Source: Amoebophrya sp. A120 (taxonomy: Eukaryota > Protista > Dinoflagellata). Taken from it: a stretch of 64,000 bases of DNA. The stretch lies in contig CAJINV010000001.1 in assembly GCA_905178155.1 (NCBI GenBank), positions 6,109,860 through 6,173,859 of the forward strand, given 5' to 3'. Shown here piece after piece: positions 15,563 through 52,891 of the stretch (within the stretch, counting starts at the first letter, position 1; every line of letters begins with the position of its first letter). Both the position numbers and the translations under genes were made by a program. Under the pieces are notes generated by a model. The model was given only the letters and a program-made list of their open reading frames with translations, did no database searches and was not told where the DNA came from.

Positions 15563-16747
15563 ATGGCGCCGCGTGGAAGGACACCCGCGAAGAGCATGAA
15601 GAAGTTCAACCCGCTTACCATGTACCCGCCCAAGTCGTACGCAGCGACGGTCCGGATTTTCTGCGGTAAGTACGCCTACCGGGCGGCCTGCGTCTGCATT
15701 TGGGGGACGCACTTCCCCTTGGCCCTGTACCTGCTGTACGGCGTCTTTGTCAGCAAGGACCTCAACCCCCTGCCTGACCTCCTGGAGGGCTGCCTCATGC
15801 TGGGCATCGCCGTCGCCACGTTGTCCGCACACATCATGAGTATACTGTTTTTTTAGTAGGAGGAGGAGATATACATGTTCATCTTCATCATGATATGCAA
15901 TAGTACCTGTCGAACTCGAGTTCTTTAAGAAGTTCTGCCTTGTCGTTTCTGTATTCGGGTATTGAAAGTGAGGGCTATGAGCCCGTGCATCCTTTACCTT
16001 GGTCGCGTCTAAAGTGTGACGAAAACAAACTCAGACACCATGCGAGCGGGGAAGCATGTCGCGTGCCTGACCGGGATGGTCTACCACTTCATCACCGCCT
16101 CCGCGTGCACCTCCTTCCGACTGAAGCGGGCGGTATCGCAAGAAAAAAGTGTTACAGTTACACATAGTGTTGCAGGCATAGCAAGACAGACAAGGTCTGT
16201 CATGCCGGATATGCATAGGGGCGTTGTTTCATATGTGTTTTCCCGTAGGATTTCTGCAATGCAAGTTTTCTCTCTCATGCAGAGAAATTTGTGTTGCTGA
16301 ATTGACAACAAATGTGTGACTGTAACACTTTTTTCGTGTGATAGGCGGACCAGTTTACCTATTGCCGCGCCATCGACGCCCGGATCATCAACTCGTTGGG
16401 CATGTACGACTACTTGCAAGGTACGACTATACTTGGCTTTATTGCATAGTTCAGAACGTGAACGAATGACAGTTAGACAAGGAGTTTTTCTTTATCAGCA
16501 CAAAAATAAAAAAAGCTCGTCGGGGTTCATCGCGATCTTTAAATTCCTAACCGTGTCAACCAAATTTTGATTTATGCAAAACTTCTTTGTGTCCTCCTCC
16601 TCGTACGGTATAAAAACTAATAAACAAACTGCAGGTGACGGCGGTCTCATTGCGTTGTTCAAAATGTTCACGTGCGTCATGTTGGCCGTCTCGATGTACA
16701 ACGCCGGCGGACCGGGCATGCAGAAGTTTCTGAACAACTCGATTTAA
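15563..16747 (+). CDS. Small multi-pass membrane protein, unknown function; introns 15840-16034, about 16133-16344 (introner) and 16421-16634
   Basis: GC-rich exons with hydrophobic segments join in frame: AHIM|NTMRAG...KRA|(A)DQFTY...YLQ|GDGGLI...NNSI*. Confidence 0.7.
16134..16343. mobile_element. Introner/MITE family A, copy 1 (210 nt, direct repeat GGCGG)
   Basis: TIR tatcgcaagaaaaaagtgttacagttacacat / atgtgtgactgtaacacttttttcgtgtgata. GGCGG at 16129-16133 and 16344-16348. Homologous along its length to 42178-42387. Confidence 0.93.
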
Positions 16748-17740
16748 GCACGGACAACAAACCTTGTGCTTCCGGAAGATGGACTTTTGGTAACACTAAC
16801 AACCAACTGCAAATGCCCATTCTACGAAATTTGAAGCTCTATCCTGTTTTAGCAGGTAGAGCACAGCTTCTATACCGGGCCTCCCGCCTGGGGTTGTAAG
16901 ATTGCTATGTACACTACTCTTCCATAGTACCAAAAAAGCTAGAGCTGCATCTTCATCCTTTTTGAGCCTAACAGTCAGTACCCTTTTCTTGCTCCTGTTG
17001 ACAAATCCGCATACCCTTTTTGACTATTATTCAACATGACTATTCCACGCACGATAGTTTGTCTCCGAGTCAGCCTTCTTGTACCATAAGTATAAATCTT
17101 CACTGCAGCGCTCATGATTTTGATTCCTCACTGCTTTTTCGTGTTTTGCGCATTTGTCAGTTTGCCTCTATGTAGTTGTCCTCTTCATGATGATAATAAA
17201 TAGGTTCCACCTATCGCTTGTACTTGTTGTAGGTAAGCGACAGACAACCGTGTAGTCGAAAGGCAATGGTTCGATCAAGCGAAAACGGATTTGACAGCAT
17301 CTTCAAGGCGACTGCAGGCTTGATTAAGTTGAAATTTGATCGTCTCATTGGTGTTGGTCGTCCTTAGCATCCGAGGAACAGGCTTGCATTGTCGTTAGAC
17401 TCGAAACGCATTTTGTGTTCATTTTATCGTTCGTCAGCCCGTGAGACGATGAGGGGCGATCGTCCGTGGTTCTTGGAGTGGAGCGCACCAGCAGCTGAGC
17501 GACGAGCGTTCGTGGCGTGTTTCTTCGACTAAATTCCACATGTACATTCGGATTCGCTGCGTCTCTACGGTGGGCAGCAAATGGAGCCGGCAGCCAAGAG
17601 CTCTTACGAACTACAGGTGTTGATGAACATGCGAAGATCTTGCGCCCTTGACGACTTGTGTAGTTACCCTTGAGAGAAAGAAGAGCCAGGGTGTCAAGAT
17701 ACAATCTTCTAAGTACGGCGGCCAAGAAGTGAGGAACAGA

Positions 17741-19632
17741 ATGCAGGTTCCCTCCGGGCCAGGCAAGTCACTTTCGCCGCCCATGCTGCAGGTTCCGGGC
17801 GAGAACGGGCCGAACCCCTTTGGGCAGTTTCGGCTCGGGAACCCAGCGGCACCGCCCGCGGGTCCGGCCCCGGTGGACCGGCAAAGAGCCCTGGCCATGC
17901 AGCAGCAATCGCAAAACCTCGCAGCCGTGATGTCGGGCGGCGGCGGCAGTGCCGCTAGCACAGCGGCATTTGTCAGTCACCACCAACCCCAGATGGTGCA
18001 GCACCTACCGCACACAGCCGGGGCGGTTTTGCAGCATCCGTCCGCCGCTGCCGCACAGCTCGCAGGTGCGGCTAACGGCGCAACAGTACTTATTTCTTCT
18101 TCTTGTCTCCTTCACGGCCGCCGGCGCTGACTTTGAATTGATGATGGCGCAGGATAGTGATAATCCCGTCTTAATTCCAATTGATTTGCAAATGAATGAA
18201 AATCGGCTGAAAATATGTGAACAAATTGAGATTTTGAGTGCAAACAAACTCTACGTTTACGTACAGGTCCTCGCAGCCACGAAGCAGCATGGGTGGCGGC
18301 AGCTTACGGACGGTTTGCGAGAACTCCTGCAGCAGAAGATCGGCTTTCACACCCAGATGCAGAGTTTCGCGCAGGCCTCGGCTGACGAGCTACAAAAAAA
18401 TGCCACGACGCTAGACAAACTGGAGTCCATGCTAGTCCAGTTACAAAACGCACCACCGCCGACCGTCAGTGCTCCAGCTGGAGCGGTTTCGCAGCAAAAG
18501 GTAAAAATGTGTGGATGAATGTTTCTGAAGTTGTGCATGAAAGTGCTTTCACCAGAATGAGCTTCTGTTTGAAGCCCATTATCCCGTACAACTGCTTTGT
18601 TCTGGGCTTGCGTGTGCCTTTTCCAAACATGATTTTCACGTGGAAACAGGTTGTCGCGGCTACAGGGCAAGTGCCTCCATTTTTTTGGCAACCGAGCCAC
18701 GACTACGAGAACGAATTTGCTGTGTCGGGAGACAATCTAGAGGTGGTGACAAAGGTTCGAGATTTTGAAGATCGAGGGTGGGTCATTCCGGTATTTGCGC
18801 TTTTGTGAGCGTCGTGGTCGTGTTTGCCTTTGCATAGTCGTAGCCTGTGCTTGGAGATAAACTCTGTCGCGCTCTTTCGTTTTTTTTTCAGATGTGAACT
18901 TTTGATGTGTAGTAGTACTAGTCTCCTCGAACACAAGACAGCCAACACTTGCAGGTCGCGGGTAGTCTGCGCATGGTCCGGGGTGCGATCTACCGGTGGT
19001 CAATGTGCATTTCGAAGAAGTGCCAGCACCGACCACAAATGCAGTTCGGCATCCACGGAGAGAACCACGAGAAGCCGTGGCGGCTGGTAACCACTAGTAG
19101 GTGCTCGCGTTCGAGGGACGATGACCCGTGGCAAGATCGCCCCGCGGGGGACAGGCTGATAGGTATAAACTGTTTGTGTTGTTGTATTGAACGCCAGCTT
19201 GCTGCCATAAGCATAACAACGAATTTTCGCCATGCATTTGTTTCCTGTACCTGTAGTACAGCAAAGACAGACGCCGATACAAATAATTGGAAGAAATTTC
19301 GCAAAATTTTCACAGAGGAAGGCGACTACATCCACGTTGTCGTTGACTTGCGTGGGTTCGATAGCGAGTTCGGTACTTTCTCTTATGCGGTGAACGATGG
19401 GCCAATGGAGATGGTGTTTGAAGATTTGCCCCTTTTGACTCCAGACGGCAAACTTGTGTCCCTCATGCCGGTTGTGTCCATGGGCGGCGACCAGTGCGCA
19501 GTGAAACTCAGCGCATCTGCCTTCGGCTCAGCAAGTGCTGCTGGAACCACGACTGCAAATGGTGGACCTGCGGACAGTGGTGCTGTCGGGAGCGCCGGAG
19601 GTGCGGCGAAGGGAGGAAAGAGTGGGAAATAA
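17741..19632 (+). CDS. SPRY/B30.2-like domain protein; introns 18086-18266, 18501-18649, 18791-18954 and 19163-19315
   Basis: All four GT-AG introns keep frame. C-terminus GDYIHVVVDL...GTFSYAVND...VFEDLP...LMPVVSM has the SPRY beta-sandwich pattern. Short coiled coil upstream. Confidence 0.7.
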
Positions 19633-20948
19633 GTTTGAGGCTTCTGACGAATTCATCGAGCGCGTTTCTGTAGTGTCTAAACAATCAATCAGCAAAAAAC
19701 GTGACCTAATAAACCCAATAGACTAATATTTCAGCGATACAGGATTTGTGTGTTGGTCAAACAACTCGCTGTTCCTCTTGTACAAAACTACTTACCAGGT
19801 ATTGACCAACCACCTGTCATCGCATGATTTTTCAGAAACAAATTTGATAATATGTTACGAGAAAACAAGTAGATCTGCTTCTGCAGAATATCCTGCGTGT
19901 AAGGTAAAATATAGTTGGGTTTTGCAAGCACAAAAAGCTGCACAGAATAACATCCAGAAAATCAAGATTCAAGATTGCGACCCCTTTGTACAGATTTTAG
20001 CTTGTTTTTTACCCTTTCGTCCGCACAATAAACCCGTCCTAAAAACACGTAGACCCTCGACGCAGCACAAGTTTCAAGTAGCTTCAACATTCCCACACCA
20101 TGCGCATCCGACCTATCGCCATTCATTGCGCATTCTGTGACAGGCATTGATCGTTGTATGTGTTCGACGGCTGTGAGTTTTCATCTCTCTCCCCATTCTC
20201 TCACAAAGTGGCTCTGGTTTTCGCTTTGCGTAGCGTAGCGCCCCCAGCGGTTTGCAAAGATCTGACTGCATCACGATGGTGCCCGAAAGACAAAAAAGGC
20301 CGATACGTCGCGACGATGGTGCAAAAATACTTGGTTTGATGTTGACTCACTGTCCCGATTTGCTGACGTCGAAGATCATGGTCTAGCGAATGGTAAAGAA
20401 GCGGTCTTTTCGTTCTCATCTTGGCAACTTCTCAAAAGCTCAAGTTCAACGCCGTTTGAAGATCCATTTTGTTTCTTCGTGTTTTTCTCTGAGTTGTATC
20501 TTGCACGAGGACGATGGACATGGATCGCATTCTTTCGATTTTTTCAGAACAACAGCAACGGAGGTGGATGTGACAGCACTAGCACATCCATTCCTGGAAG
20601 ATTTCGAAGCATGTTGCTAGGTCTTCGTTCAAGTCGCGAACCAAGAAGCAGAAGCTTTGCGCAATAACAAAACATACAATATCTCGCGATGCGAACGTTG
20701 TGATAGCGGAACAAGCATCACGTTGAGCGCTCATCTTCAGAAATTGTTTCTCAAGAAGAACTGCCACTGCCTAGTCTGCAGATGTTGAGGCAACTTACGT
20801 AGGACGATAAAACAAACACCAAAACGAAGAATGGAGTAAATTGTCCAACGGTAACAGTTTTCAGTTTCTGAAGTACCACGGCACACCAGACAATTTCAGT
20901 GAAGTTTTGGCATTGATAAGAGTTCTATAAACAAGATCTGGCGTCAAC

Positions 20949-29900: not shown

Positions 29901-30114
29901 CCCGAAGAAGTGCGCTGCAACCCCGCTGCTACTATTCGACGACGAAACTGATAATGATAATTTCGGCGGAAAGCTAGAGGACGAATCCGAAAACTCCGCC
30001 GCAGACGCCACGCAGGTAGCGCTGAAGGTGAAGTTTGAAATGAAGCGGAATCGTGCGAAAAATAGTGACTGCGCTGCCTTTTTGCGAGAACTGTGCCAAT
30101 CGTTTTCACCGTAA
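20949..30114 (+). CDS. Giant (about 2950 aa) PUS7/TruD-family pseudouridine synthase-like protein, apparently lacking the catalytic Asp; introns 26756-26904 and 29277-29443
   Basis: Collinear TruD blocks: LTNAEVGITRSVS...FRAIL...DYWFTEV; CKLYCQDANTSHAV; HTLFLRDL; GVPNFFPANRF; WLQSVQRLVWNHVASVRL...VGDVL; VALPLPG; GKWRYLFYRP; ALKVKFEM...AFLREL. These are separated by very large low-complexity inserts. Confidence 0.8.
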
Positions 30115-30820
30115 AATGTTGTAGGCTAGAACTACGAAGTACAAAAAGAAAAATTAGCGACAGCCACAGCATTCACAAATTTTGCGTACAACGACATGCG
30201 TGTTGAAATAAAAATCTTGGTCGTGTTGCACGACGACATCGATTTTGAAAAAATAGTGACCACCTGTTGGAAGTGGGCTACGATGCTCGTTTCATCATAT
30301 CATCTTCCGCTTCAAGGCATGCAACCCTTGCAAGTGAGAATCATGTTGCTTTGAGTGCTTGTTCAGTTTTGTCGTGCTAGCGCGCTCTTTGTCTTTTTAA
30401 TAAGTCAAGAAAAGGAAGTTGATAGAAAAATTGGATATGACATAATATGATGACTCAACATCAACAGCACACCGTCGTTTTCGCTCGTCACATAGGTTTC
30501 ATCGTCTTCCTGTACTCCGTTTCTTGTCGACAATTATCAAACTTTTGCGCTGATAACATCGGTGCTGTTTGTCAAAAGTGATGAACTTGACGCTGTAGGT
30601 TGCAGCATCTTGACTTGCACGAAAGTTGTAGTCGATGCTCTATTTTCGTGTACTACTAGGTAGAAGTCGACCCTGGAACAAAGTTACAGAATAAAAGAGG
30701 TGCTCTTCTTCATCTTTGGTCAATTTCTACAACCACGCATAAAAAAATCATCATGAGCCTTCACCTTCTATTGAACACCGCTGCAGGAGGCTCATAATAG
30801 GAGTGTGTGCTCGCAGCAGA

Positions 30821-34622: not shown

Positions 34623-37600
34623 ATGACGCTCCGCACGTCACTTGTGCTTGGCGCGTTTGTGTCGCTCATTTGCGACCCGCCCGGGGTAGTTCTTGCGAGC
34701 GGAGATGTTGCAGATCAAGCGGCAACAAGAACGACCGACACTGCGCTCCCACCTCGTGTTGAGCCAGCAGCCGTGCCTGTTCTGCCTACAACTAGGCTGA
34801 TTCCGACGATAGAAGCTCATGCCGGTGCGACAGAAGATGTAGATGGAACAACCGTAAGTTCCACAACAACTGCAAACCCGAACGCGTGGCGCAAACCGCT
34901 ATCCTGGACGATCCCTCGCGAGCAGCACCAGGAATGGGCCGCCAGGACGGGCATGCCTGCAATTTTGACGCACGAGTTTTGCTGGGAGCTGGCTGCGCAG
35001 AACAGAGAAAAGTTTGAGAGGCTGCGAAAATTAGGCGAATTGCAAAGGTCCACGCCGCTTCCAACGGGGGCGGAGCGAAGGAAGCTCGCCGCCGCGAACA
35101 GTGCAGCGCACGGCGGTCGGGCTGCTCTAGATCCGAAATGGCATGAGGAGATGCTGCGTGACGCCGAGGCGCATCGCGCCGGCGAGAAGCGGCGAATGGA
35201 GGAGCGAGACCAAGACGCATTTCGAGGAGTCCCAACCTCCTTCTCGCCAGGCCAGGAGGACGAATTCTGGCAGCCATTCGGGGATCTAGGAAAGTATTTG
35301 CCATATGCATATTGTTCGATCCAGTGTTCTTGAGAAGGAACGAAAAAAATCTGAGCGTCAGCACCATCCTAATCTCACCAGAATGGCTATAATGACCGAA
35401 AACGAATAAAAGTAAAACCGCTACCATCGAATTCTTCATCTTCAGGTATTGTGAGCAATACTCGGGAATGCATCCGTCCGCGAGGGGTATGACGTACATG
35501 GAGCGCATGCGTATGGCGAGGGGAATCATCCTTGAGACTTTGCTCGCGAAAAACCAACACGCCGAGGAGGCGGCGAGGGCGGCGGCAAAGGAAGAATTCC
35601 TTCCACAGCGAAGAAGGCTGGAAGAGGTGCGCGGAACCTTGCGAAGTCTGCGAGCAAACGAGGAGGAGAATCGGCAGCTAAAAATTGCAGAAGAAGAGGA
35701 CTCGTCTGCCAAAAAAAGTGCTGACCAGCAGAAAAAAAATCTAGAAAACGAAGAGCGCGAACTTGCCGACCTGGTGAAGCGCGAGGAGGACGCGTACATG
35801 GAAAGAGAACACCGCCCGTTTATCGGCATAAAACTCGACCCCACACCGCTGAAAGTGAAAGAGGACATGGAGAAGCGCGAAAGACAAGCAGCCCTGCAGA
35901 AACAGTGGGAGGAAAATAGGGACTCGTTTCTTCGAGGCGGCATGCGGGCTGGAGTCGATGACAAAGAAGAAAGACAAAAGAGGAAAAGGGCCGCTGCGAG
36001 GAAACAAGCAAGTGCAATAGGTATTAGCGGTGTAGTAGTAGGCGCAGCACGAGATGAAAACTTTGAGGACCTGAAAATCGGTGGCTCACAACATGCAGTG
36101 ACGGCAGGAGTGGGGGAGCAGTTGTCAGTTGGAGGTTCTTCGGCTGCACCAACAGCAGATGAAAACGAAGCGTCCGTACTTGCTGCCCTTCGGAACTGGT
36201 TCGTTGCGATCGTCTCTAACTTGCACGCAACTGTCCTTGATCTTTCCGCTATCACATCACCTAACGATGCATCATCAACACCTGCGAGAGAACAAGAAGA
36301 AAACTACAGGGACGGACTGCTCCACAAGGAAGACTGGGCTGTGAATCCCGCGGATCTGTTCACGCACACCGAGAACGCTGATGGTTTTTTTGTTCCGGCA
36401 GATCTTGACAAGCAGCTGCGGAAGCCGCACACAAGAAAGCTAGCTGCCAGAATACGGGCTGATGAAACGGAAACGAAAAATCATAAACGAAATCTACAAG
36501 AATCGGGGGCACCAGCCACAGCACATCTAAAAAAAAACGCCGAAGAACCAGTCGCTCCGCGGACGCCCGCGTCGAGCGCGTCCTCGGCACAACTGGTACC
36601 AGCCGGCGCAGCACCTTCAGCAGCTGCGTCCTCGCATGACGAAGAGCTCCCTACGTTTTCTGCTACTGGTACGTGCGTACCCAGCTTTGATCATGACCTT
36701 TTTACCGAAGATCCTCGTGAACTAGAAGCTCATGTTGACCGGCATGACAACTCGGAAAGAACCCCCGATAAAAGCACCACCCGGCGCTGCCTGCAGTCGG
36801 GCGACATCAGACAGATCGGAATTGTGAACAACATGCCAAACCAGACTTTGGTGAAGAAAATCACGGTGGGTAACGTGGTCTACAACGCGAACGAAATTCC
36901 CATCCGCAACCGCATCCCCATTCCAGAGCTGCTGAAGGACGACAACAGCAACAGCAACGACCCGCAGCTGCAGGCGGACGACAATCCGTACCTCACTTCC
37001 TTCACGCTCTACAACTTCGAGGCCAAGGCCTCCCTGGTGATGCACCAGCGCCGCGGCAGCATTTTTCTCTACGACGTGGATTCCAGCACCTACGACGACG
37101 TCCCGCGCGGGGTGGACTTCAACGAGGTGCTGCCCCCGGCGATGCGGTTCCGTTTTCACTCCTGCAAGGAAAACAACGCGTTTTGCCACGTGCAGATGTC
37201 CACGTACATCGACCAGGGCCTGGTCGTGCTGGACCGGCACCGGATGATGATCGTAAAATACCCGTGGTCCACGTTCGCCGGCGTCGACCGGGTGTACGAC
37301 AAGACGGTGGAGGACATGGTGCTCCGCATGCCGCAGCTCAGCATTTTTGGTACCATGGACATCGCGGGCGCCGGCAACCTCGGCCTGCAGTCGGCGGAAG
37401 CGGTCTTGCGGTACCAGACCCACTCCGACATGGTGTTTGTCGAGCGGATCGACGCGTTCACGCCGGGACATTCCATCGCTAACCCGGATATCCTGTGCAA
37501 AAGTATCGTACTCGTACCAACTGCAGTCATGCAAGACAATTTTTTTTTTTTAAGCTAAATAAGCATGAGAAATTCCACTTCTCATGCTGAGCTAGATTTG

Positions 37601-40067
37601 TATTGCAATACTACGAATACGATAGTTTTGCAGTTCATACCGGATTTTCTGCACGTAGCGGACACCTTTCTGTTTGTCGCGGACACGGGGAATGATCGGA
37701 TTGCCATTTTCAATCTGACCACACCCGAAAGCTACTCGTTCTACGAAACCTTCCAAATGAAAGACTCCTTGAAGCCCTCGCCGGAGCTGAATCGTCCGGT
37801 GGCACTGGCGATGTTCCTACCTGGGATGGAGTACAGGTACAGGAGAAAACTACAAGATTTGAATTTCACCTACTTAAGCCTCTCCCCATCTACTAGTTTC
37901 CGGTTTTTATCCCGACGAAGGAAGTGATTCATCTAGTCGTCCTGCTCACATAGACCACATATCTTGACGAATCGAACGACAATCAAAAAAAGAATAAAAA
38001 CAAAACCACCCCACCACACAGGGAGAGCCCCACGTACGCAAACATATTCCTCTGTGACCGTTTGAACCACCGGGTTCTGAAGTTGAATTGGGGCTACTAC
38101 CAGTACAGCGAGCAGTACAATTTTACGATCTACGACGATTTTGGGTTGGTCGACCGAATTGAACAGCGGACGCGCTACTACCGGCGCTGGAACCGCGGGC
38201 CCCACCTCGAATACGACAGCCAGATCGGCGGCGACACCACCCCCGGCGGCTTTAGTCAGGGGTTACTGACTATCAAATGCAAAAGTGTGTGGGTCTGGAA
38301 GGATGCAAGTTTGTCATGCTTGTCTGGCATGACTCGAGAATCTGTGTTGCATAGGCGCGAAAAGGCCCTCTTACCTGTCATGCAAAAACGCAGGCTGCCA
38401 TGCGGAATACGTAAGACATGGCAGCCAAAAAATTTGTCATGCATAGTTGCGTATTGCAGTGCGTCTACCATTCACTTTTAGCATTACAAGTTTCCAGACC
38501 CAGACATATCTGCATTTGATACTGACGGAGCCGATTTCCGTGCAGACGTTCCGGCACTACATTTTCGTGCTGCAGTACGGCTCGGATGAGATCGGGGTGT
38601 ACACGCTGAACTACAATCAGACGAAGGAGTTTTTGTTCGTTACCAAGTTCTATCAAATGCAAAAATGTCTGGGTCTGGAAGAATGCAAGTTTGTCATGCT
38701 TGTCTGGTATGACTCGAGAATCTGTGTTGCCGAGGCACGAAAAGGCCCTCTTACCTGTTATGCAAAAACGCAGTTTGTCATGCGGAATACGTAAGACATG
38801 GCAGCCACAAAATTTGTCATGCATAGCTGCGTATTGCAATGCGTCTATCATTCACTTTTAGCATTACAAGTTTCCAGACCCAGACATATTCGCGATCCAT
38901 AAGTTCACGAACAGCCGCAAGATCGAGTACGGGATCGGCGTGAGCTACAACGGCTACGTCTGGTTCGCCCAGCAGGAATCGCGGCAGTCCAGTTACGAGA
39001 AGGACCTGGCGGTGTTTGAATCGCCCCGCGACCTCCGCGAGGGCATCCGGCAGTACAAGGCGGACGACTTGAAAACGCAGTGCGTGGACCTGGATTTCTA
39101 CAACAAGACCATCATGAACGACCCGGCCGAGTTCGTCCGGGTGGTGTCCCACGCGTTAAACATCTCCGGGCTGCAGTACTTCTACCCGAACCGGACGGGG
39201 ACGTACGTGGACCTGAAACTGTTCAACCTCTCCTACGTGGCGGAACAGGATTCCAACCCGTTGCTGACCGGGCAGAACATTTACACGCCCCCGGCGATGG
39301 ACTTTGGGTACAATCCCAGCGGCCTCATCGGTCCGCAGTACCCCGAGGAAACCTGGTGGAACAGTACCAAAGCGGGGTTTAACTTCCAACTCTGGAACGC
39401 GACCATCTACGGGGGGATCGTGATGGAGGTCTGCGAGGTGTACATCCCGACGCCGCCGCCCATGCTGTTTGGTGGACAGGGTGGGTTCGTCAATCAGGAC
39501 GGCTCCGCGTTGCAGCAGTGGGACATCAGTGCGGCCTATGATCACGGTGGAAAGAGGAGGGGTGTTTTGCTGGAAAAGACCGTTTTGTTACTCTTCATGT
39601 ACTGCGTTTGGTTCATGCTGTTTCATCAGCCGCGGAAGAATTTCTACTCCACGCAGCTAGAGGAAACAAGTAACTCAGTTCATGTGCTGGTGGAGGTGCA
39701 GGAAAGAAACAGTCGCCGCAGTTTTGGTGTCGCTGCAAGAACGTCGATTTTGCAGCACGACAACAGAAGTGTCGTCGGGCTCCCGTGCGGAGGTACTGCT
39801 TCGGAAAAGAGCTCTGGAGGTCCAGATGCGGAAGCGAAACACGAAGACGAAACTGAGGAAGACCACGCACAAGAACACGACGAAATGACCTCTGGCGTAA
39901 CTGCATCGTCCACGACACCGCATTCGAATTTGCAGCATTTTCCGCGCGGGTTGGTCGTCGAAGTTTCCAGTGACAGAATACGAACAACAAGAATACGAAG
40001 CCGACAGCACGAGATAAGAAAAACTAGAACTAGTACACTTCTCAACGACAAAATGGCACCAGGCTGA
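34623..40067 (+). CDS. Large secreted/membrane protein with NHL-like beta-propeller repeats; GT-AG introns 35294-35445 and 37837-38021 plus three introners
   Basis: N-terminal signal-peptide-like segment. NHL motifs FVADTGNDRIAIF and IFLCDRLNHRVLK. Late hydrophobic segment VLLLFMYCVWFMLF. The frame is continuous only after the three TIR elements are removed. Confidence 0.72.
37489..37639. mobile_element. Introner/MITE family B (151 nt, direct repeat CCGGA)
   Basis: tatcctgtgcaaaagtatcgtactcgta ... tacgaatacgatagttttgcagttcata. CCGGA on both sides. Excision gives ANP-DFLHVADT in frame. Confidence 0.88.
38271..38521. mobile_element. Introner/MITE family C, copy 1 (251 nt, direct repeat CTGAC)
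   Basis: tatcaaatgcaaaagtgtgtgggtctggaa ... ttccagacccagacatatctgcatttgata. Excision gives GLL-TEPISVQ in frame. Confidence 0.93.
38651..38901. mobile_element. Introner/MITE family C, copy 2 (251 nt, direct repeat AGTTC)
   Basis: Near-identical to 38271-38521. The right TIR is partly decayed (cgcgatccata) but still ends ATA. Excision gives VTKF-TNSRKIEY in frame. Confidence 0.92.
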
Positions 40068-41693: not shown

Positions 41694-44600
41694 ATGAGCG
41701 ACGTGATGGTGGTAGAAGACCAGACGGCGGCGGCTCCGGATGGAGCCGCTGCCGCCCCCCCACCAACCGCGGATCCTGGGGCGGGATCATTTGCGGAAAA
41801 CGCTCCCATTTCGGAAGAACAAGTGCGGAAGCAGATCTCGGATCTTATCGAAGCAAAAACGCCAGTGGAGGAACTCATAAAACTACCAGAGCCCGTGCGA
41901 GACAGCCTCGCGGCAGTGAAGGTACGGTGGAACGTGCTGTTAATTTTTTTCGCATGAAGCATTTTTGTTCGGATAAGTGGTGTTTGCACTGACTTACTTA
42001 CATACATGCGCAAGATGTGACTTTTGTTCCTCACAGGTCTATAATATCTACATCGTTTTTTTACCTTTTCCTTTTCCTACTTTTTTTTCGCAGGTGGTGA
42101 TGCCAGTCCTGGGCGACTATGATGAGGTCGAGCAGAAGATGCTCATTGAAAATTTCGCTCCCTTGCGAAGCACGATTTATCGCACGAAAAAACTGTTACA
42201 GTTACACATTGTGTTGCAGTCCAAGCAAGACAGAGAAGCTCTGTCATGCAGGATATGCGTAGGAGCCTCGTTTCATAGCTGTTTTCCCGTAGGACTTCTG
42301 CATTGCAAGTTTTCTTGCTCATGCAAAGAAATTTGTGTTGCTAAATTGACAACAAATGTGTAACTGTAACACTTTTTTCTCACGATACGATTCTACCCGA
42401 GGCCATTAACATGATCATCGAGCGGCTGATATCCTGAGTAAAAGCGTCCCCACACCAGAGTTGTAATGCAGATTTGCAAAGACAGGAAGACTTGTAATGC
42501 GCATCCCCATGAGAGCCATTTCCAGTCGTGTTTTGGAATTTGTGATGCTGTGAACAGGATGAGCAGATGAATCTGTGACGCGGCTGCTCTTGCTAGCCTG
42601 CACTACACTGCATAGTGCAACTTGTCATGCGTGACTCCTAAAACTCCTAGGTTTGTGTTGCAAAATCCTCATCTTGACTCTGGTGTGGGTACGTTTTTAC
42701 TCAGGATAGCTGATCCTGTGGGTATCCGAAGTTGAGCGGGGAAACCAAGATGCGACGCAGCAAGCCAAGGAGCTCACGGACTTGTTCAAACAAATTCACA
42801 GCTCGCCCCTGCTTCCCTGGCTCAAAATGGAAGCAAGCATGGAACGAAAGGTATAGGACTATATACAAATCTGGAGATATTACGAATAGCAATGATGTGT
42901 TTATTGTCCCTCACTTGCAGCATGCGCCACGTAAGACCAACGACATCGCGATCCATGGATGCGATCTGCGATCGAGTCCTGTTCTTCCTACTACGCCGTA
43001 TTTTCTGTTTCCAGTTCTTGATGCTTTATAAAAAATGACTTGCACAGATCAAGTTTCTGTACGCCCTGGGTAGCTGCGTGGTGCTAGCACACGCCGAGGA
43101 CCCACCGGAAGGCCCGATGTCCGGCGCATCGCTGCTTGAATGCCGACGAATCCTGAAAAAGTCCACGGTAGTACAGACCTGGTGCCAGAGACTACTCACC
43201 CCCTTTTTCTCTGTGCCCCAGAGGAGCAACACCTTCGTGCTCGAGACGTGGATCAAAGCGCGGAAGGAACGAAGTTACAAGCTGTGGAAAATGGCGCTCG
43301 AGGCGGTGATGCAGCAACCGACCGCTAAGGAGGAATTCAAAAAGCACTGCCTGACGCTCTTCGACCCCGAGGACAGGGCGGCGCTAGAGTACCACCAGCC
43401 GTATCAGCACAACTTGAACTCGTTGAAAAGCGCGGTGCGACTCTACGGCGGCGAGCGGAACATCGTCTTTCAGAAGTTCAAAATTATTGCCGAAAAGTTT
43501 TGCAAAGACGAGCCGGTCGCGGGGTTTTACGACACGTATTTGGCAGACCTCCCAATCTATTCCGTCGAACTCGCTGCCTTTGCCAGGCTGATGATGCAGG
43601 TAGGGATTTTTGTCTATTGCTTCATATAATTCTGATTCTCTCTTTTCCATATTATGGAAAATCGAAAAGATTCAACTTGTGCAGCACTTTGAGGTGGGAC
43701 GAGAGGCTGGCTCTCAATTTTCTATTTCCACAAAACAGGTAATCGACCGAAGATCGGAGCTGTTTCAGATAATAGATGGCGAGTACCTGATCCTGAAGAA
43801 TCCGGGAAAAGAGGCGCTTCAAAGAGACATATTAGCGCCGCGGATAGCAGCCCGGCAGGCGCAGCAGTACCAAGTGCCACCGTGGATTCTCGAGACGCTC
43901 GCGAGCAAAGGTCTCCCTGAGCAGGCTTTCCGAGGGAAGGATAAGGGCACACAGAAATTGATTGTCCAGCAGATTCTGAAACTAAAGGGAAAACCAGAAA
44001 ATTACCTCGAGATGACGCAAGCACAGGGAGACGGAAAAGGACCGGTAACATCATCTTTGCATAATTCCTTCATTTTTACATGTTGATCAGATTGCATTCT
44101 CCTCATCCACAGGCACGCAAAGAGCAGCTCTCAAACGAAAATAAGCGGGAGAAAAAAAATCTTCTACAGGTCACGGCCGAGCAAGCCTTTGCGTTGCAAA
44201 TCCGCAAGTTCGTGATGGACATGAAGGGGAAAGGAAACCACAAGGGCGTAATGGAGTTGAAGGGCAAGCTCGAATCGAAAGGCAAGAATCTGATGCAAAT
44301 CCTGCAAGCCTCGGCCGCCCAGCCGCAGGCGGCACCCGCGCAACCCCCCGCAGCCGCCGCTCCTCCCGCCGCAGCAGCGCCGGCCGCAAGCCCACCAGGT
44401 TCTGCGCCAGCATCTTCCCCCCCACAAGGCAGTCCTGCGCAACAGGCATCGGCACAGCAGGGAGAGCAGACACAAGCTGAAAAGGACCAGGCCAGGAAAG
44501 TTCAGGTAGGAACAATGAGTTGCGGTGTATGATTTATCTTTTCTTTTGCATGAACGATCGTCAAGGAACGAACGGGAACGCTTTTCAAATGGAGTCTCAT

Positions 44601-47591
44601 GTCAAATGAATACCAAAAAGAAAAAGCGAAATTCAAAGTCCTTTGTTAACGAGGAGCAAAAATGCCGAATGTTTTCTTCATTTACACCCCTACACAGGTC
44701 GTCCTCGCGCTCCGCAACAAGGGCAAAAGCAAGGAGGAGATTACCGCGGTCCTTCCAACCGTCCTGGGAAACGAGAACATCGTGAACATGCTGCTTGCCA
44801 ACGCAGCTGCTGCTGGCAAAGGCGGACAGCCCGGCGGATCATCCTCCAGCACCGACCCAAAGGCAGGAGGAGCCGCGGCCGCGCCGCAGGGCAGCCCGGC
44901 CGGGACATCCAGTATTCTAGCAGGAACGAAGTTCCAAATGAACCTCTCCGCCAAGGACTCCTCTGTTTCGGAGGGCAATGTGCCAACGCCGGCCACGAAC
45001 GGTGCGGTGCCACCAATAAACAATCCGCTCGCGAGCCCACCGATGAACGGCGCACTGAACAACAACGGGGCCACAAGTGCAGTGCAGCAGCCCGCGAACC
45101 CGTACAGCAGCTACGGCGCTAGCGGGATGCAGGCCGCGGGGAGCACGGCGCAGCCCGTGAGTGGCGCGGCAAAGCTTTCTGCGCTGTCCTCATCGGGGTC
45201 GTCTGGCGACTTGAACAACAAAAACAAACCAAGTCTGGGCGCGGTATTCGAGCTTCCGGGCACAGAAAACGCGAATGATACGAAGAAAAGCAAAGCGTCA
45301 AATTGGCCGTTCCAGCAACAAGAGAAGGAGAAAGGGAATAACAAAAAGGCGGATGGCGTGCTGGGGTTCAGAAGAAAAAGAAAAATTCAGTGGGACAATG
45401 CAGCTTTCTTGAGAGCAATAGTCGCAGCGGGGCTACAGGTAGAAAAAGATGTGTTTTCGGTCAATTTTCGTAAGCATGTTGAGCGCTTGAAAATGATGGA
45501 ACTCCACGCCAAGTTCTTATCCTCAAGATTGCATCGGAAATTACTAACTACCTCACTCACAGGCGGGCGACCACAACTGGTCGCGCGAGTGGCACACCGC
45601 TTGCGCGGCTCACGAGGGGGGTGGCATGATGCCCACCAGTGTCCTCGATGTCCCGGTGGCCATGCTCCAAACCTTTGTCGAGCGGCACCTGTTCGAGGCC
45701 TACCGGGCCGGCTGGGCGGACGAGATTCTCTACCTCGGCCCCTCGGAACCGGACGACGCGCCACCGCCAAAAAAAGTCCTCGAGAACTACGCGGTGAACG
45801 GGGCGGCCGGCGGCGGTCAGCAGCAGCGGGTGTTCCGCGAGGTCAGTGACGACGACGGCTCGGAAGACAGCAAGCCCGGCGGGCAGAAAAAGAAAAAGCT
45901 CCCGCCACTTTCCGTGCTGGGGCTGGGTGGTCCCTCGCCCGAAGAGCCGGCGGCGAACGAGCAAGGCGGAGACGCCGCGGCCGCCGCTGCCATGAACATT
46001 GCCTACACGCAGGGCACAAACTCTTCCGGAGGAGCGGTCCCGCACAGAAGAGGGATCGGCATTCCGGGGAAGGGGCTGGGGCAGACCGGTATGATGATCA
46101 CGTTAGGGAGGCCAGAGCCGACGGGAAACACAGCGCCAACGGCCGCAAATGCGCAAATCACGTACATGGAGGGGGCGAATCAGACCGGGTACTAACTACC
46201 GAAAATTTCAGCTTTTTTGTATGACAATGAGATATTTTGTGAAAAATGAACACACCAGGAAATGGGAAAATGAATTCTGGTAGGCAACTTGGTCGAGTTA
46301 TTTGTTTCATACGAACACAATGTGCTTTTTCGTTTTTCGCCACAGGTTCACCGACGAGCAGCCCCCGTTCCCCGGCTCTGCGGAAGAGGCGAACCTGGTT
46401 GAGAAAAGGAGAAGGACCCTCACCAAGCTGCGGCACCGGCGGGAGAAGCGACAGCGTGAGGCTGACGCCCCCGAAGACGAGGCGACCGGGAAAAAGAAGA
46501 GGAAAAAGCGAATACACTTGACGATGTTGGGATTCTCCGACCAGGACGACCATCAGGACTCCAGTACGGACGAGGAGGAGCTCTTCGGCGACGGACCAAC
46601 TTACCATTGGAAAACAAGAATTTGTTACAGCTTCGACCACGGGCGGTGCGAAAAGGGCAAGTACTGCCACTATGCGCATACGGAAAAGGAACTGAAAACA
46701 CCGGGACAAGCGAGGCAGGAATGGGAAGAAAAACTGAAGAAGAGAGGCGTCATACCGCCGCCGCTTATGCCGCAAGGATGTACAGCATTTCTTATTTTTG
46801 CTTGTTGACTTCTGTACCTGCAGTCGACTTCTAGTTGTGTTTTTTTTTGATTTTGCAAGCGCGAGCCCATAATTTGCCCTGCAACTGCATCTTTTACACT
46901 TCCTTTGCGAAGTCACAAACTTACACACACACAGCCCTGTCTGGCGCTCCGACTGGCGAGGGGCTCGTGACAATAGAGCAGGCTATGCACGGCTACGTGG
47001 ATCATTGGGGAAGAGATGCCAAGGGTCACAAGGGCCACAAAGGATTCTATGGAAAAGGTGAGATTTTGTTTGTAAATTTGTGATGCCGAGATGGACAAAA
47101 AACAGCTCTGCAGCTTATGTACGTTAACATGTTGCAATATGGATTCAAAAGCTCCTCCAATCTCCTCCTACACTGCTCATCCTCATTCTATCACAGACCA
47201 CCACAAGGGATACGGAAAGATGGACCACAAGGGCTTTCATCACCACGGCAAGAAGGGCCCAATGCACCTCCCAGACCACAAGGGTATGCATCTGCCATTC
47301 GGCATGCAACCGCCAGAACAGGATCTCGGCTCCGCCTTCGCCCCGCACGACCCCTCGGCGCCCCCCATGATGCCAGGTGGTCCACCCGGTGCCATGGGGC
47401 CCCCGCTGCTAAAGGGCGGTCCGGGTGCTGCTATGGGTCCACCCGGGGCTGCAGCTGCTGTAGCAGGAGGCGCACCGGCCGAGGGCGCAGCTGCACCGAA
47501 GAAGGAGAAAAAAGAGAAGAAGGAAAAGAAAGAGAAAAAAGAAAAGAAAGAGAAAAAGAAAAAACGCGACATCGACGACGAGGACCTGTAG
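41694..47591 (+). CDS. CCCH zinc-finger protein with KKE-repeat tail (probable RNA-binding); nine GT-AG introns plus two introners
   Basis: WKTRICYSFDHGRCEKGKYCHYAH (C-x7-C-x5-C-x3-H). GT-AG introns at 41922-42093, 42851-43047, 43600-43738, 44045-44112 (or 44169), 44506-44697, 45439-45562, 46189-46345, 46780-46934 and 47058-47196 all keep frame. Confidence 0.72.
42178..42387. mobile_element. Introner/MITE family A, copy 2 (210 nt, direct repeat CGATT)
   Basis: tatcgcacgaaaaaactgttacagttacacat ... atgtgtaactgtaacacttttttctcacgata. Excision gives LRSTI-LPEAIN in frame. No GT or AG at the borders. Confidence 0.93.
42430..42708. mobile_element. Introner/MITE family D (279 nt, direct repeat GCTGA)
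   Basis: tatcctgagtaaaagcgtccccacaccagagt ... actctggtgtgggtacgtttttactcaggata. Excision gives IERL-ILWVSEVER in frame. Confidence 0.92.
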
Positions 47592-48687
47592 CGCTATTGG
47601 CCGCTTTGTTATTCTTTATGTTTTTATTGAAATAAACGCGCAAGAGTCATGAAGAGCTCCACCAGGAGAATGTTCCAAAACCAAAATATCGAAACGTTCA
47701 TTTTTACACACGACTAAGTAGCTTTCCTAGTTCCAACTCGAATCTATGGTTTACATTACGTCCAAAACGAATACAGGAAAATCCTCGAAGGTCGCGCCCA
47801 AACGACTTCGAGAAAGATCCATCAAGCGAAAACGTATACTCGAAATCTGCAATTTGAGCACTTCAACTTCCTTTGTTGTTTGTCCTCAAAACAAAAACGC
47901 ATTTTCGAAGCGAAAGCGACTGCGACTAATGTATCGACTTCCCTTGTAGTTATCAAATGGAAATGCAGCGGCGAAGGACCGCAGCGCGCATAACACCATT
48001 ACGATTACTTTGTATTTTGTATCACGATGCGCCGGACGCGGACGCGGACCGAGCGTGGGGAAGCGGAAGCACGTGCCTTCATCTTGAATGATCTGTGGCC
48101 TTCGTTAATGCACCCGCATCCAAGATGGCGCTCGTTTCAGGGGCTTGGTCGTGATTCGCTCTCCGTGTTGACCTGTTTCTGTCCTGCGGCGAGATGCACA
48201 GCAGCAGAGTTATGGAAAGATCAAACATTAACGCACACAAAACACGTAACATACAAAGCGAATTTTTACTCTGCAAAGGTCCTTTTTGTACCTTGCTTCT
48301 TCAAGATTTTCGCTGCCCCAGTTGTTCGCTCCTCTTGCCTCATCTTTTCGGTGATTCGGCTTCTGTACTAAATGGCAACCCGCTTGGCCGCCGACGAGTA
48401 CCTCCGAAAGTTTACAGAGGGGAGTGATTCTTAGTTCATTCTGCAACGGAAAGAAGAAGCCCTGAGAGTTCTAGTCCAAGAAAGGAACAACGAGTCGGGC
48501 TGTGTAGTTCTAGTTTTTTTTTGAGAGTGCAGCTCGAGGTGTAGGGCTGTTCCAGCATGCGACAACGCTTTCTCGTACTTACGAGTCAATACGAGGATAG
48601 AATCAATCTTCTGCCACTAGATTTTTTCCAACCGAGCATCCATGATGACGTAAACAAACACAAGCGCAGGCAGAAAGAGTTGAGGAG

Positions 48688-50596
48688 ATGGAGCGGGCGG
48701 CTCAGGTACCACAGCGTACAACTGGAAGACATCAACATCGAGCCGCGCACTGTACAGTTTCGGCCCTGTTTGCGGCTTTCTTCGCGGGCCACCAATTTGC
48801 ACAAGGGTTGCAGCTCCAGCCACGAAGCAATGCTGCCCTGATTTTTGAGAGGGAGTACGAGAAGGTGAAACATGGGGCGTACGAGCACGACAACAGTTTT
48901 TCGCCTAATAGCGAGGAGTACGACAAACTCTACGCCGCGTGGCTAACGCCCCGCTTCGCTAAGTTGCAGAAGCAAATCGACACCGCACGACTGCATGGTA
49001 ACATCGGACAACAAGAGAAGGGAGTAGAGAAGGCAGCTTCTCATCAAAATAAAGACGATACCAGTGACAGTCCCGTGGCCGCCCCTCCTTCTCTCGTCAT
49101 TGGCATCAAAACCGCTGGGGCGTGGACGCGAGTGCGTGATGTACACCGAACTACATGGATGAAATCGGAAAACCGACAAGGCAAAAAATGCGTCACCCAG
49201 AAACAAGTCACGCCTGGGCAGGTGACCGCCCGGTTCCTGCTCGAGGGCGAGCCGACGGAGGACCTGCTGAAGGAACAGGCGAAATTTGGAGATTTGGTCT
49301 TTCTTAACACCACGGATTACGCACACAAGCTGCCGCTGATGCCCAGTGATAGGCGAAAAGTGTTTTCTTGGTTTCGGAAAATAGGAGAGATCGAAGCGGG
49401 CGGTGGTCCTGACAAGAACGAAGAGCAAGCAGTTGCAAACACCAAGAAACCAAGCTACGTGGCAAAAATGGACTGCGATACCTACATTGAGCCGTGCGAC
49501 CTGCTCGAGGACATGGCGGGCAGCGGGACGCCTTTGTACTACGGCCAGATGAATGGGCGCAAGGAGCTTTTCAACCCCTACGGCGGGCGGGACATTGACA
49601 AGTGCCGGGCCAAGATCGAAGGACGGACCGATCACGAACCTTTTATGCAGGGCGGGTAAGAGCAGAATCAGAGTGTGCTGCTTTACCTCCTTTTTGCATT
49701 TCCATTCATTCTTGCGTTGGAGTAGGGTAGACTTGGCTAGCTTCTTGAAATAAGTGTACTTATCGTAGCAATTTCTCATCTTCAGGTTCTACGCTATGTC
49801 CCAGGACATGGCGCACTGGATGGCGGAGTACCCTTCCTACCCGCGCCTCGTCAAGTCGGAGGACCAGGCCGTTGGGTGCATGATGCTGTACTCGATCCGT
49901 GCGGGCGCCGCCGGCCCGCAGATGGTGCACCCGGTCGTGTGGGAGCGCGAGGGCTGCGACCAGCACTGGTGCAACGCGTGGGACCCGAGGGGCGGCAAGT
50001 TTCTGTTCAAGCACTTGTGGTACGAGTTCGCGGCGCACGTGGGGAAGCCCCGGCACTTATCAAAATGAAAAATCCCCCCTCCCCATATCAAAACGGAAAT
50101 TTGTGATGCTGATTTGTGACCACAAATCAGCTCTGTATTGCAGAGAGGCACTGCGGCCAGATCCCCAGGCTAGGTAGGGGCGTGCGGGTCTGGTAGTTCA
50201 GCATGGCAAGCGGCCCCCCTTTAGGCCCAACAGCATGACAAACCGCTTCCATAATGGGGCGGAAGCTTGTGCCCTTATCTTCTTGCAAGACAGATGTGAT
50301 TTGTGACCTCAAATCCGCAACGCAAATCTTTGCAAACATACCGCTTCAATATGGGGAGGGGGGATTTTTCCTTTCGATAGCACTACAGCATCAATGTGAC
50401 CGACGTGATGGCGTTGCAGGATGACGGCGCGGTGATTCCAGAGTCGAAACACGACGTACTGAAAGAGGAGCAGGAAGGAAAGGAGGAGCAAATGCAGAAG
50501 GGTTTGCAGAAAGAGAAAAAGCCGGCTCCAGCGCAGGCTTTGGAGGGGGGAGCTTCAGCCGCGAAGGCTGAAAGTGGTGCGAGGAAAGAGCACTGA
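48688..50596 (+). CDS. GT31 (galactosyltransferase-like) glycosyltransferase; GT-AG intron 49656-49785 and introner 50058-50379
   Basis: LVIGIKT, RDVHRTTW, EQAKFGDLV, YVAKMDCDTYI (DxD), LYYG, FMQGG|FYAMSQD and SEDQAVG match the GT31 pattern. Confidence 0.82.
50058..50379. mobile_element. Introner/MITE family E (322 nt, direct repeat GCACT)
   Basis: tatcaaaatgaaaaatcccccctccccatat ... atatggggaggggggatttttcctttcgata. Excision gives KPRH-YSINVTD in frame. Confidence 0.92.
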
Positions 50597-51071
50597 GAGT
50601 GAGAAATAAAACAAGGAGTAAAGTGTGTGGTTGTCATACATACTGGACAGGTCTTACATGTGGTTGTGGATGTTTGTTTTCTTTTCCGAAATAAATACTA
50701 GGTGTTTGGACAGTTATTTTTCCGACGGCGCATGCAGTAGCAGTCGTGATGCCCAAGAAGATCAAGATTCATGTGAGTAACTTATTGGCTTGCTTCACCT
50801 GGCGGTGCAGCGGAACAGATTGCACTTTTACCACATCGACACCTCCGGTGTCAGGGGGCCATCGAGTTGCTTCAGATAACAGCATATCGTAGCTGGTCGT
50901 GTTTTGAAAAACAAAGCATGTTCTTCTCGATCTCGAACGCGACTCCACGATCTGTTCAATGTGCTGCATCTTCAGACGGCTAAGTTCCGAAACAACGCAG
51001 ATCAAGGACAAAAAGACAGCGTCCTGATGCCCTTTCGAGGGCCGGGGCGCTCTCTTCGGGACGAAAGAATT

Positions 51072-52891
51072 ATGGCGCTCTTCTCAAATAATGTGATGAT
51101 GCGCGGCCCTATGAGGTACTACTACATCCTCATCGCCATGGGAGTAGTTGCTCCCGCGTTCGTTCAATCTCTGCAGGTGGCCCGTAATAACAAGAAAACT
51201 CTCGACCAGCCGAAAGGATCGATTCCGACATCCAACTTGCGGCCCGTAGAAGAGTTCTACGTGGACAAGCTGCGACACTCTGGCGTGCTCGCCCGAACGA
51301 CAGATCACCAGGGAAATAAAAGCACGAGTGCAAGAGCATCGGCTGCAGCTTCTTCCCTGCAAGAGGCCTTGCAGGAAAAGGCCATCTCTCACTACCAAGC
51401 CGAGTCGTCCGATGGGTTGGCGGAATTAAAGCAAGAAAAACTCGTTTTGAAGAACAAAAAGAGCTACGACGTGCTGTTCCTCGTGCGCGCTTGGCAACTA
51501 ACGACCGAGCAGTACACGCGCCTACGGGAAGAGGTGCTGGACGTGAATGCATTTCACGGTGAGGAACGGCTAAAGGAGCTAAATCTGCACAGCGAAAATC
51601 TGCCTGCTGTGAGTTCCGCCAGAAAACCGAAGATCCAAAATCTCCACATGGTCATCTCGTACGACATCAGCGGCAGGAGAAAAGAAGACGTCTACCAAGA
51701 GATTGAGAAGCAGCACGGCCTTCAGGTTGACAGGGAGAGGCAATTGATCAAATTCTTCTATGATCAAGACGACATCACAGCGCCGCAGCACCAGCAGCAG
51801 GATCAAAGTGCTCAAAAAACAGCTACTCTCCCGATCCACTTTCTGGATCAGAACGGAAACATGAAGGAGCGGTACCAGACTTGGCGGGAGTTCGAGGCGC
51901 CGTGGCAATTCGACGAAGTGAAAAACTACGGCTGGAGCTACCAGACGGAAGCGAGGGACAGCGCCATCGCGTTCATGGAAACGAAGGAGAACCTGGAGTA
52001 CGACTTTGTGTTCGTCGGCGAGGCGGACGTGGGGTGGACGGGGATATCACACAGAAAAAAACTGGCAGGGCATATCTGTAATGCAAAAATAAATAGACAA
52101 AAAAATCTGCATTGCATAACTGAAACAGCATGCTATGGGGCCAAGCATGACAGATTTTTCTGTGCATTTATTTTTGCATTACAAATATGCCCTGCCAGCT
52201 TTTTTCTGTGGGATAGGGGAAGCGGTTTTCCGATTTTTTCGCGCTCTCGGTCGCGACGCAGCCGGATGAGGATTTGCTGGTTTCGGTCCGCCGCCGACCG
52301 TGCGAAAATAAAGTAGAGCACAACGAGGACTCTTCTTCTTCTTCGTGCAATAAAACACATGGGGGTTGGGGCTACGACAAGCCCTACACGAGAGTCGCCG
52401 ACTTGCCGGAAGTCCCCGAGTACAATCTGAAGTTCCACACGCCGAACTTCTTCCGCTTCCTGCAGGGAAAGCTGAAAGAAAACATGTGGCTCGCGGAAGA
52501 GCACTTCCTTCGCCTGTCTAGACCGATGCTTCGCGAACTTCGGCGGCAGTTTGACAAGTTCGACGTGAGCGGCGCCAGCGAGGTCTCCGTCCCGTCGATT
52601 TGCAAGCGGTTCGAGAATTTTTATCACAGCGAGCAGCGGGTCGGCGATCAGGATCAGCAACCTCTTTCGAAGATGAACTTGTTATCCTGTGGTGTCATCG
52701 CGCCGGAGTTCATTTCGCCATTGTTCGACTGGAAAAAGCTGTCGCCACCTGGTAGAGGAGAGGCGTTCTTCGCGGATTTGAAGGAAAAGCAAACGAAAAA
52801 TGATATGACCTCCACGCGTGTCTCTGTCGCCGGAAAGGATGAGCAACGCGCTGCGGCGGGCATTGGGCAACTTGTCCATCCAGTGAAGTGA
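51072..52891 (+). CDS. DUF3405-like putative glycosyltransferase-type protein with N-terminal signal/anchor; interrupted by introner 52045-52215
   Basis: YDFVFVGEADVGWTG...DEDLL and terminal LVHPVK resemble DUF3405 motifs. Hydrophobic N-terminal segment YYYILIAMGVVAPAFV. Confidence 0.6.
52045..52215. mobile_element. Introner/MITE family F (171 nt, long TIR of about 50 nt, direct repeat GGGGA)
   Basis: tatcacacagaaaaaaactggcagggcatatctgtaatgcaaaaataaat ... atttatttttgcattacaaatatgccctgccagcttttttctgtgggata. Excision gives WTG-KRFSDFF in frame. Confidence 0.93.

Follow-up and report, generated by a model that had tools for sequence, protein, structure and literature searches.

The introners of Amoebophrya A120 are described, in the available text of two reports, as many families of 110–320 nt with inverted ends made of TAT, 7 nt and an A-run, short direct repeats, non-canonical junctions and no transposase (PMC7789003; PMC12130899). 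How they spread without a transposase, and how they are removed despite an apparent loss of U1, are stated there as open questions (PMC7789003). Here we analysed a 64,000-nt stretch of the Amoebophrya sp. A120 genome (contig CAJINV010000001.1, positions 6,109,860 to 6,173,859 of the forward strand; hereafter the window), which contains eight elements that match A120-type introners by these features. The elements, along with a layout of the genes on one strand, agree with an Amoebophrya host. The published direct repeats are 3–5 nt long, as far as the accessible text goes, whereas those in the window are uniformly 5 bp, other lengths lying outside our survey rule (PMC7789003; PMC12130899). The elements carry several copies of a motif, AYY-TGT-V-W-TGC, which is real and general across the superfamily they belong to. 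From sequence analysis, we lean slightly toward the view that this 11-bp box is a double-stranded DNA (dsDNA) binding site for one mobilising protein, which would still bind resident copies and is likely to be a transposase of the integrase type or a domesticated form of one.

Subterminal repeats are known as transposase-binding sites in hAT elements, where the Herves transposase binds an 8-bp repeat and the motif, as here, is short, present in several copies near both ends and uneven between the ends (PMC3143072, in the part available, with Ac, Tag1 and Tol2 cited there). Our elements differ from these in having a 5-bp target-site duplication (TSD) and TAT…ATA ends, in acting as introns, in the strict helical phasing of the box over unrelated families and in its apparent constraint after insertion, and binding is here predicted only. 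The hAT TSD is 8 bp. In prokaryotes, Mu and Tn7 use DDE enzymes, make a 5-bp duplication and carry several spaced binding sites per end, with asymmetric ends, although their sites are ∼22 bp and their ends TG…CA, unlike those of the window elements. Among eukaryotic integrase-type elements, IS3EU/GingerRoot share the TA…TA termini but usually have a 6-bp TSD, as opposed to 5 bp in 8/8 window elements (PMC10045372, PMC6839031). Ginger2/TDD elements come close in TSD length, with 4–5 bp according to PMC10045372 and 6 according to PMC6839031, whereas the termini of Ginger1 and Ginger2 are TG…CA instead of TAT…ATA; the word "subterminal" is absent from the available text of PMC6839031 on integrase-type transposons. 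Within A120 itself, family 38 has integrase-like homology and is listed as Ginger, with a 5-bp TSD and TA/TA termini, and is the only family to match this combination among the A120 rows listed (38/58; PMC12130899). Finally, the nonconventional introns of euglenids are likewise bounded by terminal inverted repeats (TIRs), flanked by TSD-like repeats and removed by a non-canonical, unexplained mechanism; the signals described for them are terminal RNA pairing, and no internal phased motif is described in the accessible text (PMC11282704). Introners are already published, whereas the motif, its phasing and its conservation pattern were not found in the literature searched, including PMC7789003, PMC9860276, PMC11453091 and PMC11282704 (text only, supplementary figures and subscription papers aside).

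Elements were defined by a rule blind to the motif, namely TAT…ATA ends, an exact 5-bp flanking direct repeat and a length of 80–700 nt. The window holds eight matches, all eight of them TIR elements, with a total length of 1,845 nt and an exact 5-bp repeat at every one, as the rule required. They fall into six families (A and B present twice, C, D, E and F once). The left ends of all six families read TAT, seven variable bases and at least three A. All families have TAT…ATA ends in common, together with an A-run at positions 11–14 and 5-bp duplications, and are therefore taken to form one superfamily. When motifs and ends are masked, the interiors of 14 of the 15 family pairs lie inside the shuffle range (the exception, A2–E, scores 22 against a shuffle maximum of 20), so that the families have unrelated interiors and ends of one kind. 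An initial annotation of this DNA had called the families unrelated, which holds for the interiors and fails for the ends. The elements, with their exact motif sites, and one ordinary intron are as follows.

16134..16343, + strand: element A1 (210 nt), TSD GGCGG; exact sites at 16181 (−), 16198 (+) and 16290 (+), and a one-mismatch site at element position 33.
37489..37639, + strand: element F (151 nt), TSD CCGGA; sites at 37531 (−) and 37599 (+).
38271..38521, + strand: element B1 (251 nt), TSD CTGAC; sites at 38312, 38343, 38376 and 38435 (+) and 38481 (−), the first pair at element positions 42 and 73.
38651..38901, + strand: element B2 (251 nt), TSD AGTTC; sites at 38692, 38723, 38756, 38776 and 38815 (+) and 38861 (−).
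42178..42387, + strand: element A2 (210 nt), TSD CGATT; exact triad at element positions 33 (+), 48 (−) and 65 (+), that is 42210, 42225 and 42242, and a further site at 42334 (+).
42430..42708, + strand: element C (279 nt), TSD GCTGA; sites at 42462, 42493, 42541, 42623 and 42654, all +, with two pairs 31 apart.
47058..47196, + strand: ordinary GT–AG intron with one copy of the motif, at 47079 and in full context; it may be an old element.
50058..50379, + strand: element D (322 nt), TSD GCACT; sites at 50102 and 50134 (+), 50233 and 50285 (−).
52045..52215, + strand: element E (171 nt), TSD GGGGA, with a 65-nt TIR; sites at 52077 (+) and 52176 (−) facing inward, each 33 nt from its end, and at 52145 (−).

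B1 and B2 are 94% alike and lie 129 nt apart in the same exon, which suggests a local hop. The two ends of B2, right and left, do not agree with each other at several places within positions 4–13.

The motif was first reported as about 30 exact copies of TGTNWTGC in 1,845 nt, two to six per element. Our count is 32, with 3, 2, 5, 6, 4, 5, 4 and 3 copies per element in coordinate order, so that the estimate stands. This corresponds to 17.3/kb within the elements, against 12 sites (0.19/kb) outside them, and the whole window contains 44 exact sites on either strand versus 18.7 in shuffles. With a single copy per family, 23 sites are found in 1,384 nt, whereas dinucleotide shuffles average 1.10 with a maximum of 5 (n = 500), and the 11 RNA-supported ordinary introns of the window have one site in 1,715 nt (the limits of one intron being 4 nt off); the enrichment therefore survives both controls that had been proposed for it. 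The sites occur in both orientations overall (23 on + and 9 on −), as annotated, but not in C, where 5/5 are on one strand.

Related elements were retrieved with an end-anchored two-motif pattern over 16 of the 64 parts of a metagenome collection. The pattern matched 168 stretches, and 156 of 159 loci lie on contigs of one assembly (JACKZZ01…). The 3 loci on other metagenome contigs contain no element with TIR and TSD, nor do any of 16 isolated matches in prokaryote genomes, and both sets are excluded from all counts; viral contigs gave 0 matches. At the retained loci the motif-blind rule identified 344 distinct elements in 36 clusters. The window families match these at up to 89–96%, and A is found at positions 11–13 in 91–96% of their ends (n = 688). 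Because the loci had been retrieved via the motif, the elements were divided into 144 that match the search pattern and 200 that do not ("unselected"). At least one exact site is present in 195 of the 200 unselected elements, at 12.0/kb (a set that includes one 6.2-kb composite). Furthermore, 12 held-out families absent from the window, with one representative each, contain 32 sites versus 2.0 in shuffles, with 10/12 carrying the motif, and TGT··TGC ranks first of all 3+gap+3 patterns in them (32 against a best of 14 over 60 shuffles). Across 413 sites the fuller motif reads A(0.68) Y(0.90) Y(0.94) TGT V W TGC, with a base other than C next. The N originally placed at position 4 is thus better given as V, T occurring in 3% of the sites, and the motif extends upstream as AYY.

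The boxes have a defined position in the elements. They had been described as internal, and are instead subterminal: seven elements of 450–1,200 nt carry 30 sites no farther than 220 nt from an end and none in the 1,895 nt of deeper sequence. In 14 families the first inward-facing site starts 33–35, 41–47 or 53–56 bp from the end. Taking one value per family (n = 14), the phasing reaches R = 0.88 at a period of 10.5, a value attained by 0/5,000 random sets over all periods between 7 and 16. No exact inward site is found in 4 of the 18 families examined, F among them. Same-strand neighbours are spaced by 31–33 bp in 44 of 197 pairs versus 5.4 by random placement, among 81 subfamily representatives that never match the search pattern and are related to one another, and inverted partners recur at +15/16 and +45–48. 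Spacing and distance to the ends, both of which had been suggested as checks, thus depart from random placement. The TIR itself has at positions 8–11 base frequencies of T 0.59, G 0.79, C 0.41 and A 0.91, resembling the 3′ half of the motif; aligned on this half, it would contain a degenerate box from position 3, ∼31 bp ahead of the site at 33/34. One metagenome locus (L013, 554–985) holds an element inside another; the inner one, of 111 nt, has a 5-bp duplication of its own and one-mismatch sites only, 44 and 55 from its ends, in phase.

The motif is also conserved among copies. Among unselected copies, mismatches to the subfamily consensus at the six fixed positions number 118/2,698 (4.4%), compared with 68/453 (15.0%) at the N position, 1,719/14,775 (11.6%) elsewhere in the interior and 8.9% in the TIR, and the fixed positions are below the other interior positions in 13/13 subfamilies. 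The motif therefore does not decay at the rate of its flanks, which had been named as a way for it to fail. When possible search-pattern sites are dropped, shared changes fall to 0.23× background and private ones only to 0.63× (p = 3e-8). A trinucleotide-matched expectation gives 116 private and 209 shared changes, with 76 (76/3,001) and 56 observed, "private" counts being unreliable in large subfamilies because changes recur.

The elements behave as introns. Raw RNA reads were available from one dataset (X9), and the contigs of two others (X3 and X6) are presumed to be RNA. F is excised as 156 nt (151+5). Its joint appears in raw RNA reads of X9 (n = 294) as well as in X3 and X6 contigs; it is not among the joints listed for X1, whose contig retains F. 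Over the 637-nt stretch of B1 and B2, the X3 and X6 contigs retain 125 nt, which equals 637 − 2×256. Joints were also found for A2 (215 nt; X3 and X6), C (284 nt), D (327 nt) and E (176 nt; X6). Seven of the eight elements, all but A1, are thus excised as the element plus 5 nt at non-canonical junctions, with raw RNA reads for F only. Joints in complementary DNA cannot by themselves exclude template switching by reverse transcriptase, but the reading frames speak otherwise: 7/8 have no open frame while the element is present, and deleting element plus 5 nt opens the frame in 8/8, A1 included. G…G duplications able to create GT–AG ends number 14/189 among the exon-interrupting elements, with no excess, and hence no selection for them is seen. 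Near F, within 37400–38021, X9 covers only ∼37400–38005, and poly(A) loose ends follow position 38005, which falls in an ordinary intron; an intronic polyadenylation isoform or a 3′-biased library are possible sources.

These features resemble those of transposase-bound ends. The motif is repeated near both ends, absent deeper and conserved among propagating copies, and the TAT…ATA ends with a 5-bp stagger point to an integrase-type transposase. The boxes stand a whole number of helical turns away from the element end, and neighbouring boxes are three turns apart. In the mechanism that we propose, protomers would bind these phased boxes, synapse the TAT…ATA ends and insert the element with a 5-bp stagger. 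Any short DNA with TAT…ATA ends and a few boxes would then be mobile, which would let family interiors diverge freely while the boxes stay. A further step, with less support than those of transposition, is that mutations of the motif in resident copies would be costly to the host, most simply because the bound protein would help to flag inserts of either orientation to be removed from the transcript as it is made. The 11-bp box with its fixed phasing unites many families into one system, and offers a bait for the missing protein and a rule to mutate.

The step after insertion was addressed with 470 full-length copies aligned to 23 consensuses, 147 with a change in TSD or end and 323 perfect. 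TSD mismatches arise only after insertion, and such changes therefore mark older copies. From perfect to marked copies, divergence rises from 0.145 to 0.181 in spacers, from 0.094 to 0.135 in TIRs and from 0.168 to 0.213 at the N position, whereas the fixed motif positions go from 0.047 to 0.046 (ratio −0.08, 95% interval −0.71 to 0.32). In 407 copies, with small subfamilies and doubtful ends dropped, 70 motif mismatches are observed versus 120–144 expected, and the motif rises less than the spacers in 11/13 subfamilies. Over all fixed sites of unselected copies the values are 0.0463 and 0.0469 (60 changes versus 85 expected under a conservative +0.020 control, p = 0.0025). Furthermore, TGTCATGC ranks first among the 8-mers (52 versus 7.9) of 240 kb of non-coding-like DNA that has no homology to the elements. 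Orphan sites in such DNA have exact partners at 31–33 in 15 cases versus 1.0, and one-mismatch partners in 5 versus 5.0; simulated neutral decay of 15–30% yields more one-mismatch than exact partners, unlike these pairs. Several orphan pairs lie within short, apparently GT–AG introns, and 3/12 retain 70–83% matches to elements, so that orphans look like old elements. A sense-strand bias of the orphan pairs, suspected by eye, was not confirmed (6 versus 6, by a rough call). Together, these data provide moderate evidence that the motif is under host-level constraint after insertion, whatever the cause. Possibly this selection acts for removal from RNA, and the motif may help the cell to excise the elements. 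If the protection holds genome-wide, the box would link transposition to intron removal via a DNA-binding protein, a link that was not found in the literature searched.

Several observations weigh against a mobilising protein that still binds resident copies. Farhat et al. (2021), in the text available, found no transposase in A120 (PMC7789003). We detected no transposase domain in 20 window frames (Pfam) and no convincing transposase among the frames of elements of 400–1,500 nt, inspected by eye; neither an integrase-like DDE transposase nor a binding protein was thus found, the sequence at hand amounting to ∼0.55 Mb. Exact sites are absent from 5/200 unselected elements and 2/12 held-out families, and the first sites of family F face outward. 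A period of 11 fits the phasing as well as 10.5 (R of 0.87 versus 0.88), and the families share ancestry, their phase values being not fully independent. As for constraint, private changes outside the motif are flat in marked copies (from 0.0249 to 0.0252), so that the history of source lineages, as opposed to age, may explain part of the extra divergence of these copies; end-proximal sites have decayed in unselected marked copies (from 0.041 to 0.067, p = 0.027); and a control, the TIR A-run, did not rise in never-selected subfamilies. The orphan comparison rests on ∼8 pairs, and assembly errors are possible in repeats. No significant difference separates exonic from non-exonic copies (p = 0.078; p = 0.57), and the comparison thus gives no support to a link with splicing. 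Of the two roles first suggested for the motif, transposase binding boxes thus agree with the anatomy, though no transposase was found, while a mark for a splicing factor is favoured indirectly by the protection after insertion and disfavoured by the flat private background and the end-proximal decay.

Many of these points would be expected if the boxes served transposition only, as ordinary subterminal transposase sites that are neutral after insertion, with removal from RNA proceeding via the terminal hairpin and the duplication. Such an account, which we regard as possible though not probable, would cover the whole anatomy (subterminal confinement, spacing and phasing), the frequency of private motif changes, which are much less depleted than shared ones, a private background that did not rise with TSD marks, the decay of end-proximal sites and the likeness of exonic and non-exonic copies. 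It does not predict that fixed sites stay flat in unselected copies while the N position inside the motif decays normally, that orphan pairs are exact-only, or that TGTCATGC leads the 8-mers of non-homologous non-coding DNA. The motif is thus not neutral after insertion in our comparison, with the caveats of the flat private background and the end-proximal decay.

At the other extreme, the box could mark introns at the level of the DNA. A single protein, probably an integrase-type transposase that has been domesticated, would bind phased boxes on tens of thousands of inserts and direct a transcription-coupled machinery to cut out the element and one duplication, whichever way the insert faces and with no need of U1 or of fixed splice dinucleotides. 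If true, intron definition would be read from dsDNA, and the same code would drive the spread of the elements. We consider this stronger form speculative and rather doubtful.

A host DNA-binding factor without transposase kinship, such as a chromatin or transcription factor whose binding aids tolerance or mobilisation of the elements, would also account for protection after insertion, the orphan pairs, the motif excess in non-homologous non-coding DNA and the failure to find a transposase in A120. The motif may also resemble the ApiAP2 site TGCATGCA and the TALE-homeodomain site TGTCA. However, it is transposition machinery that would be expected to keep the motif at a fixed distance from the element end and only near the ends, and the orphans look like old elements, given the 3/12 pairs with element matches; we therefore find this explanation unlikely.

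The motif could instead be read in RNA, single-stranded or in a hairpin, by the non-canonical splicing machinery. The apparent loss of U1 small nuclear RNA (PMC7789003, available text) and the protection after insertion would suit this reading, as would the period of 11. In predicted RNA folds the motif positions are more often paired (0.75 versus 0.59), and 124/354 sites pair mostly with another exact site (90 elements). However, the other 230/354 have no exact partner, inverted pairs show no more than modest complementarity at their variable positions (N, 34/72 versus 0.34 expected; W, 45/72 versus 0.50), and direct repeats 31–33 apart cannot pair mutually. The strand data argue in the same direction. 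A codon model called the host strand for 229/352 elements and shows families inserted in both orientations, with 448 sense versus 406 antisense sites (220 elements) and equal private changes on the two strands (20/850 sense, 20/803 antisense). Among 189 exon-interrupting elements, 26 lack an exact sense site and 31 an exact antisense site. Equal counts and conservation on the two strands, together with elements that lack a sense site, make a single-stranded RNA signal unlikely; a single-stranded RNA enhancer would be present and conserved on the sense strand, which is not what we observe. Reading in RNA therefore appears improbable, whereas dsDNA is supported as the one form that shows every site alike, with helical spacings. 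The initial annotation had proposed recognition of dsDNA or double-stranded RNA; the former is borne out by strand-blind conservation, helical phasing and the 31–33-bp spacing, and a single-stranded RNA signal is not.

Lastly, a relic of common ancestry, mutational bias or chance is scarcely tenable and largely refuted by conservation and held-out enrichment, since, although the common ends do show shared descent, the motif persists in unalignable interiors, its changes are below the trinucleotide-matched expectation (116/209 expected versus 76/56 seen, private/shared) and it is enriched out of sample.

With regard to a source for the mobilising protein, three long elements of 834–1,104 nt (L069, 12538–13509; L020, 632–1465; L015, 505–1608) have motif-free interiors, and that in L069 has identical 25-nt ends. 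They are candidate deletion derivatives of an autonomous element. A 6.2-kb call in L063 was considered as an autonomous element and rejected, as it is a host gene with several introners.

Elsewhere in the window, a protein kinase domain is followed by EF hands at 12289–14705, as in calcium-dependent protein kinases, and tandem paralogues, ∼73% alike, lie at 60069–61040 and 61876–62847, the first with a weak RING-finger match. The intergenic stretch 40299–41045 matches second, diverged contigs in X1, X3 and X6, and represents another repeat family, which is motif-free. At 6490–7400 lies a tandem array with units of 106–154 nt and long G and C runs; ahead of it, a GC-rich stretch spans 5040–6300, and its frames gave no match in Pfam.

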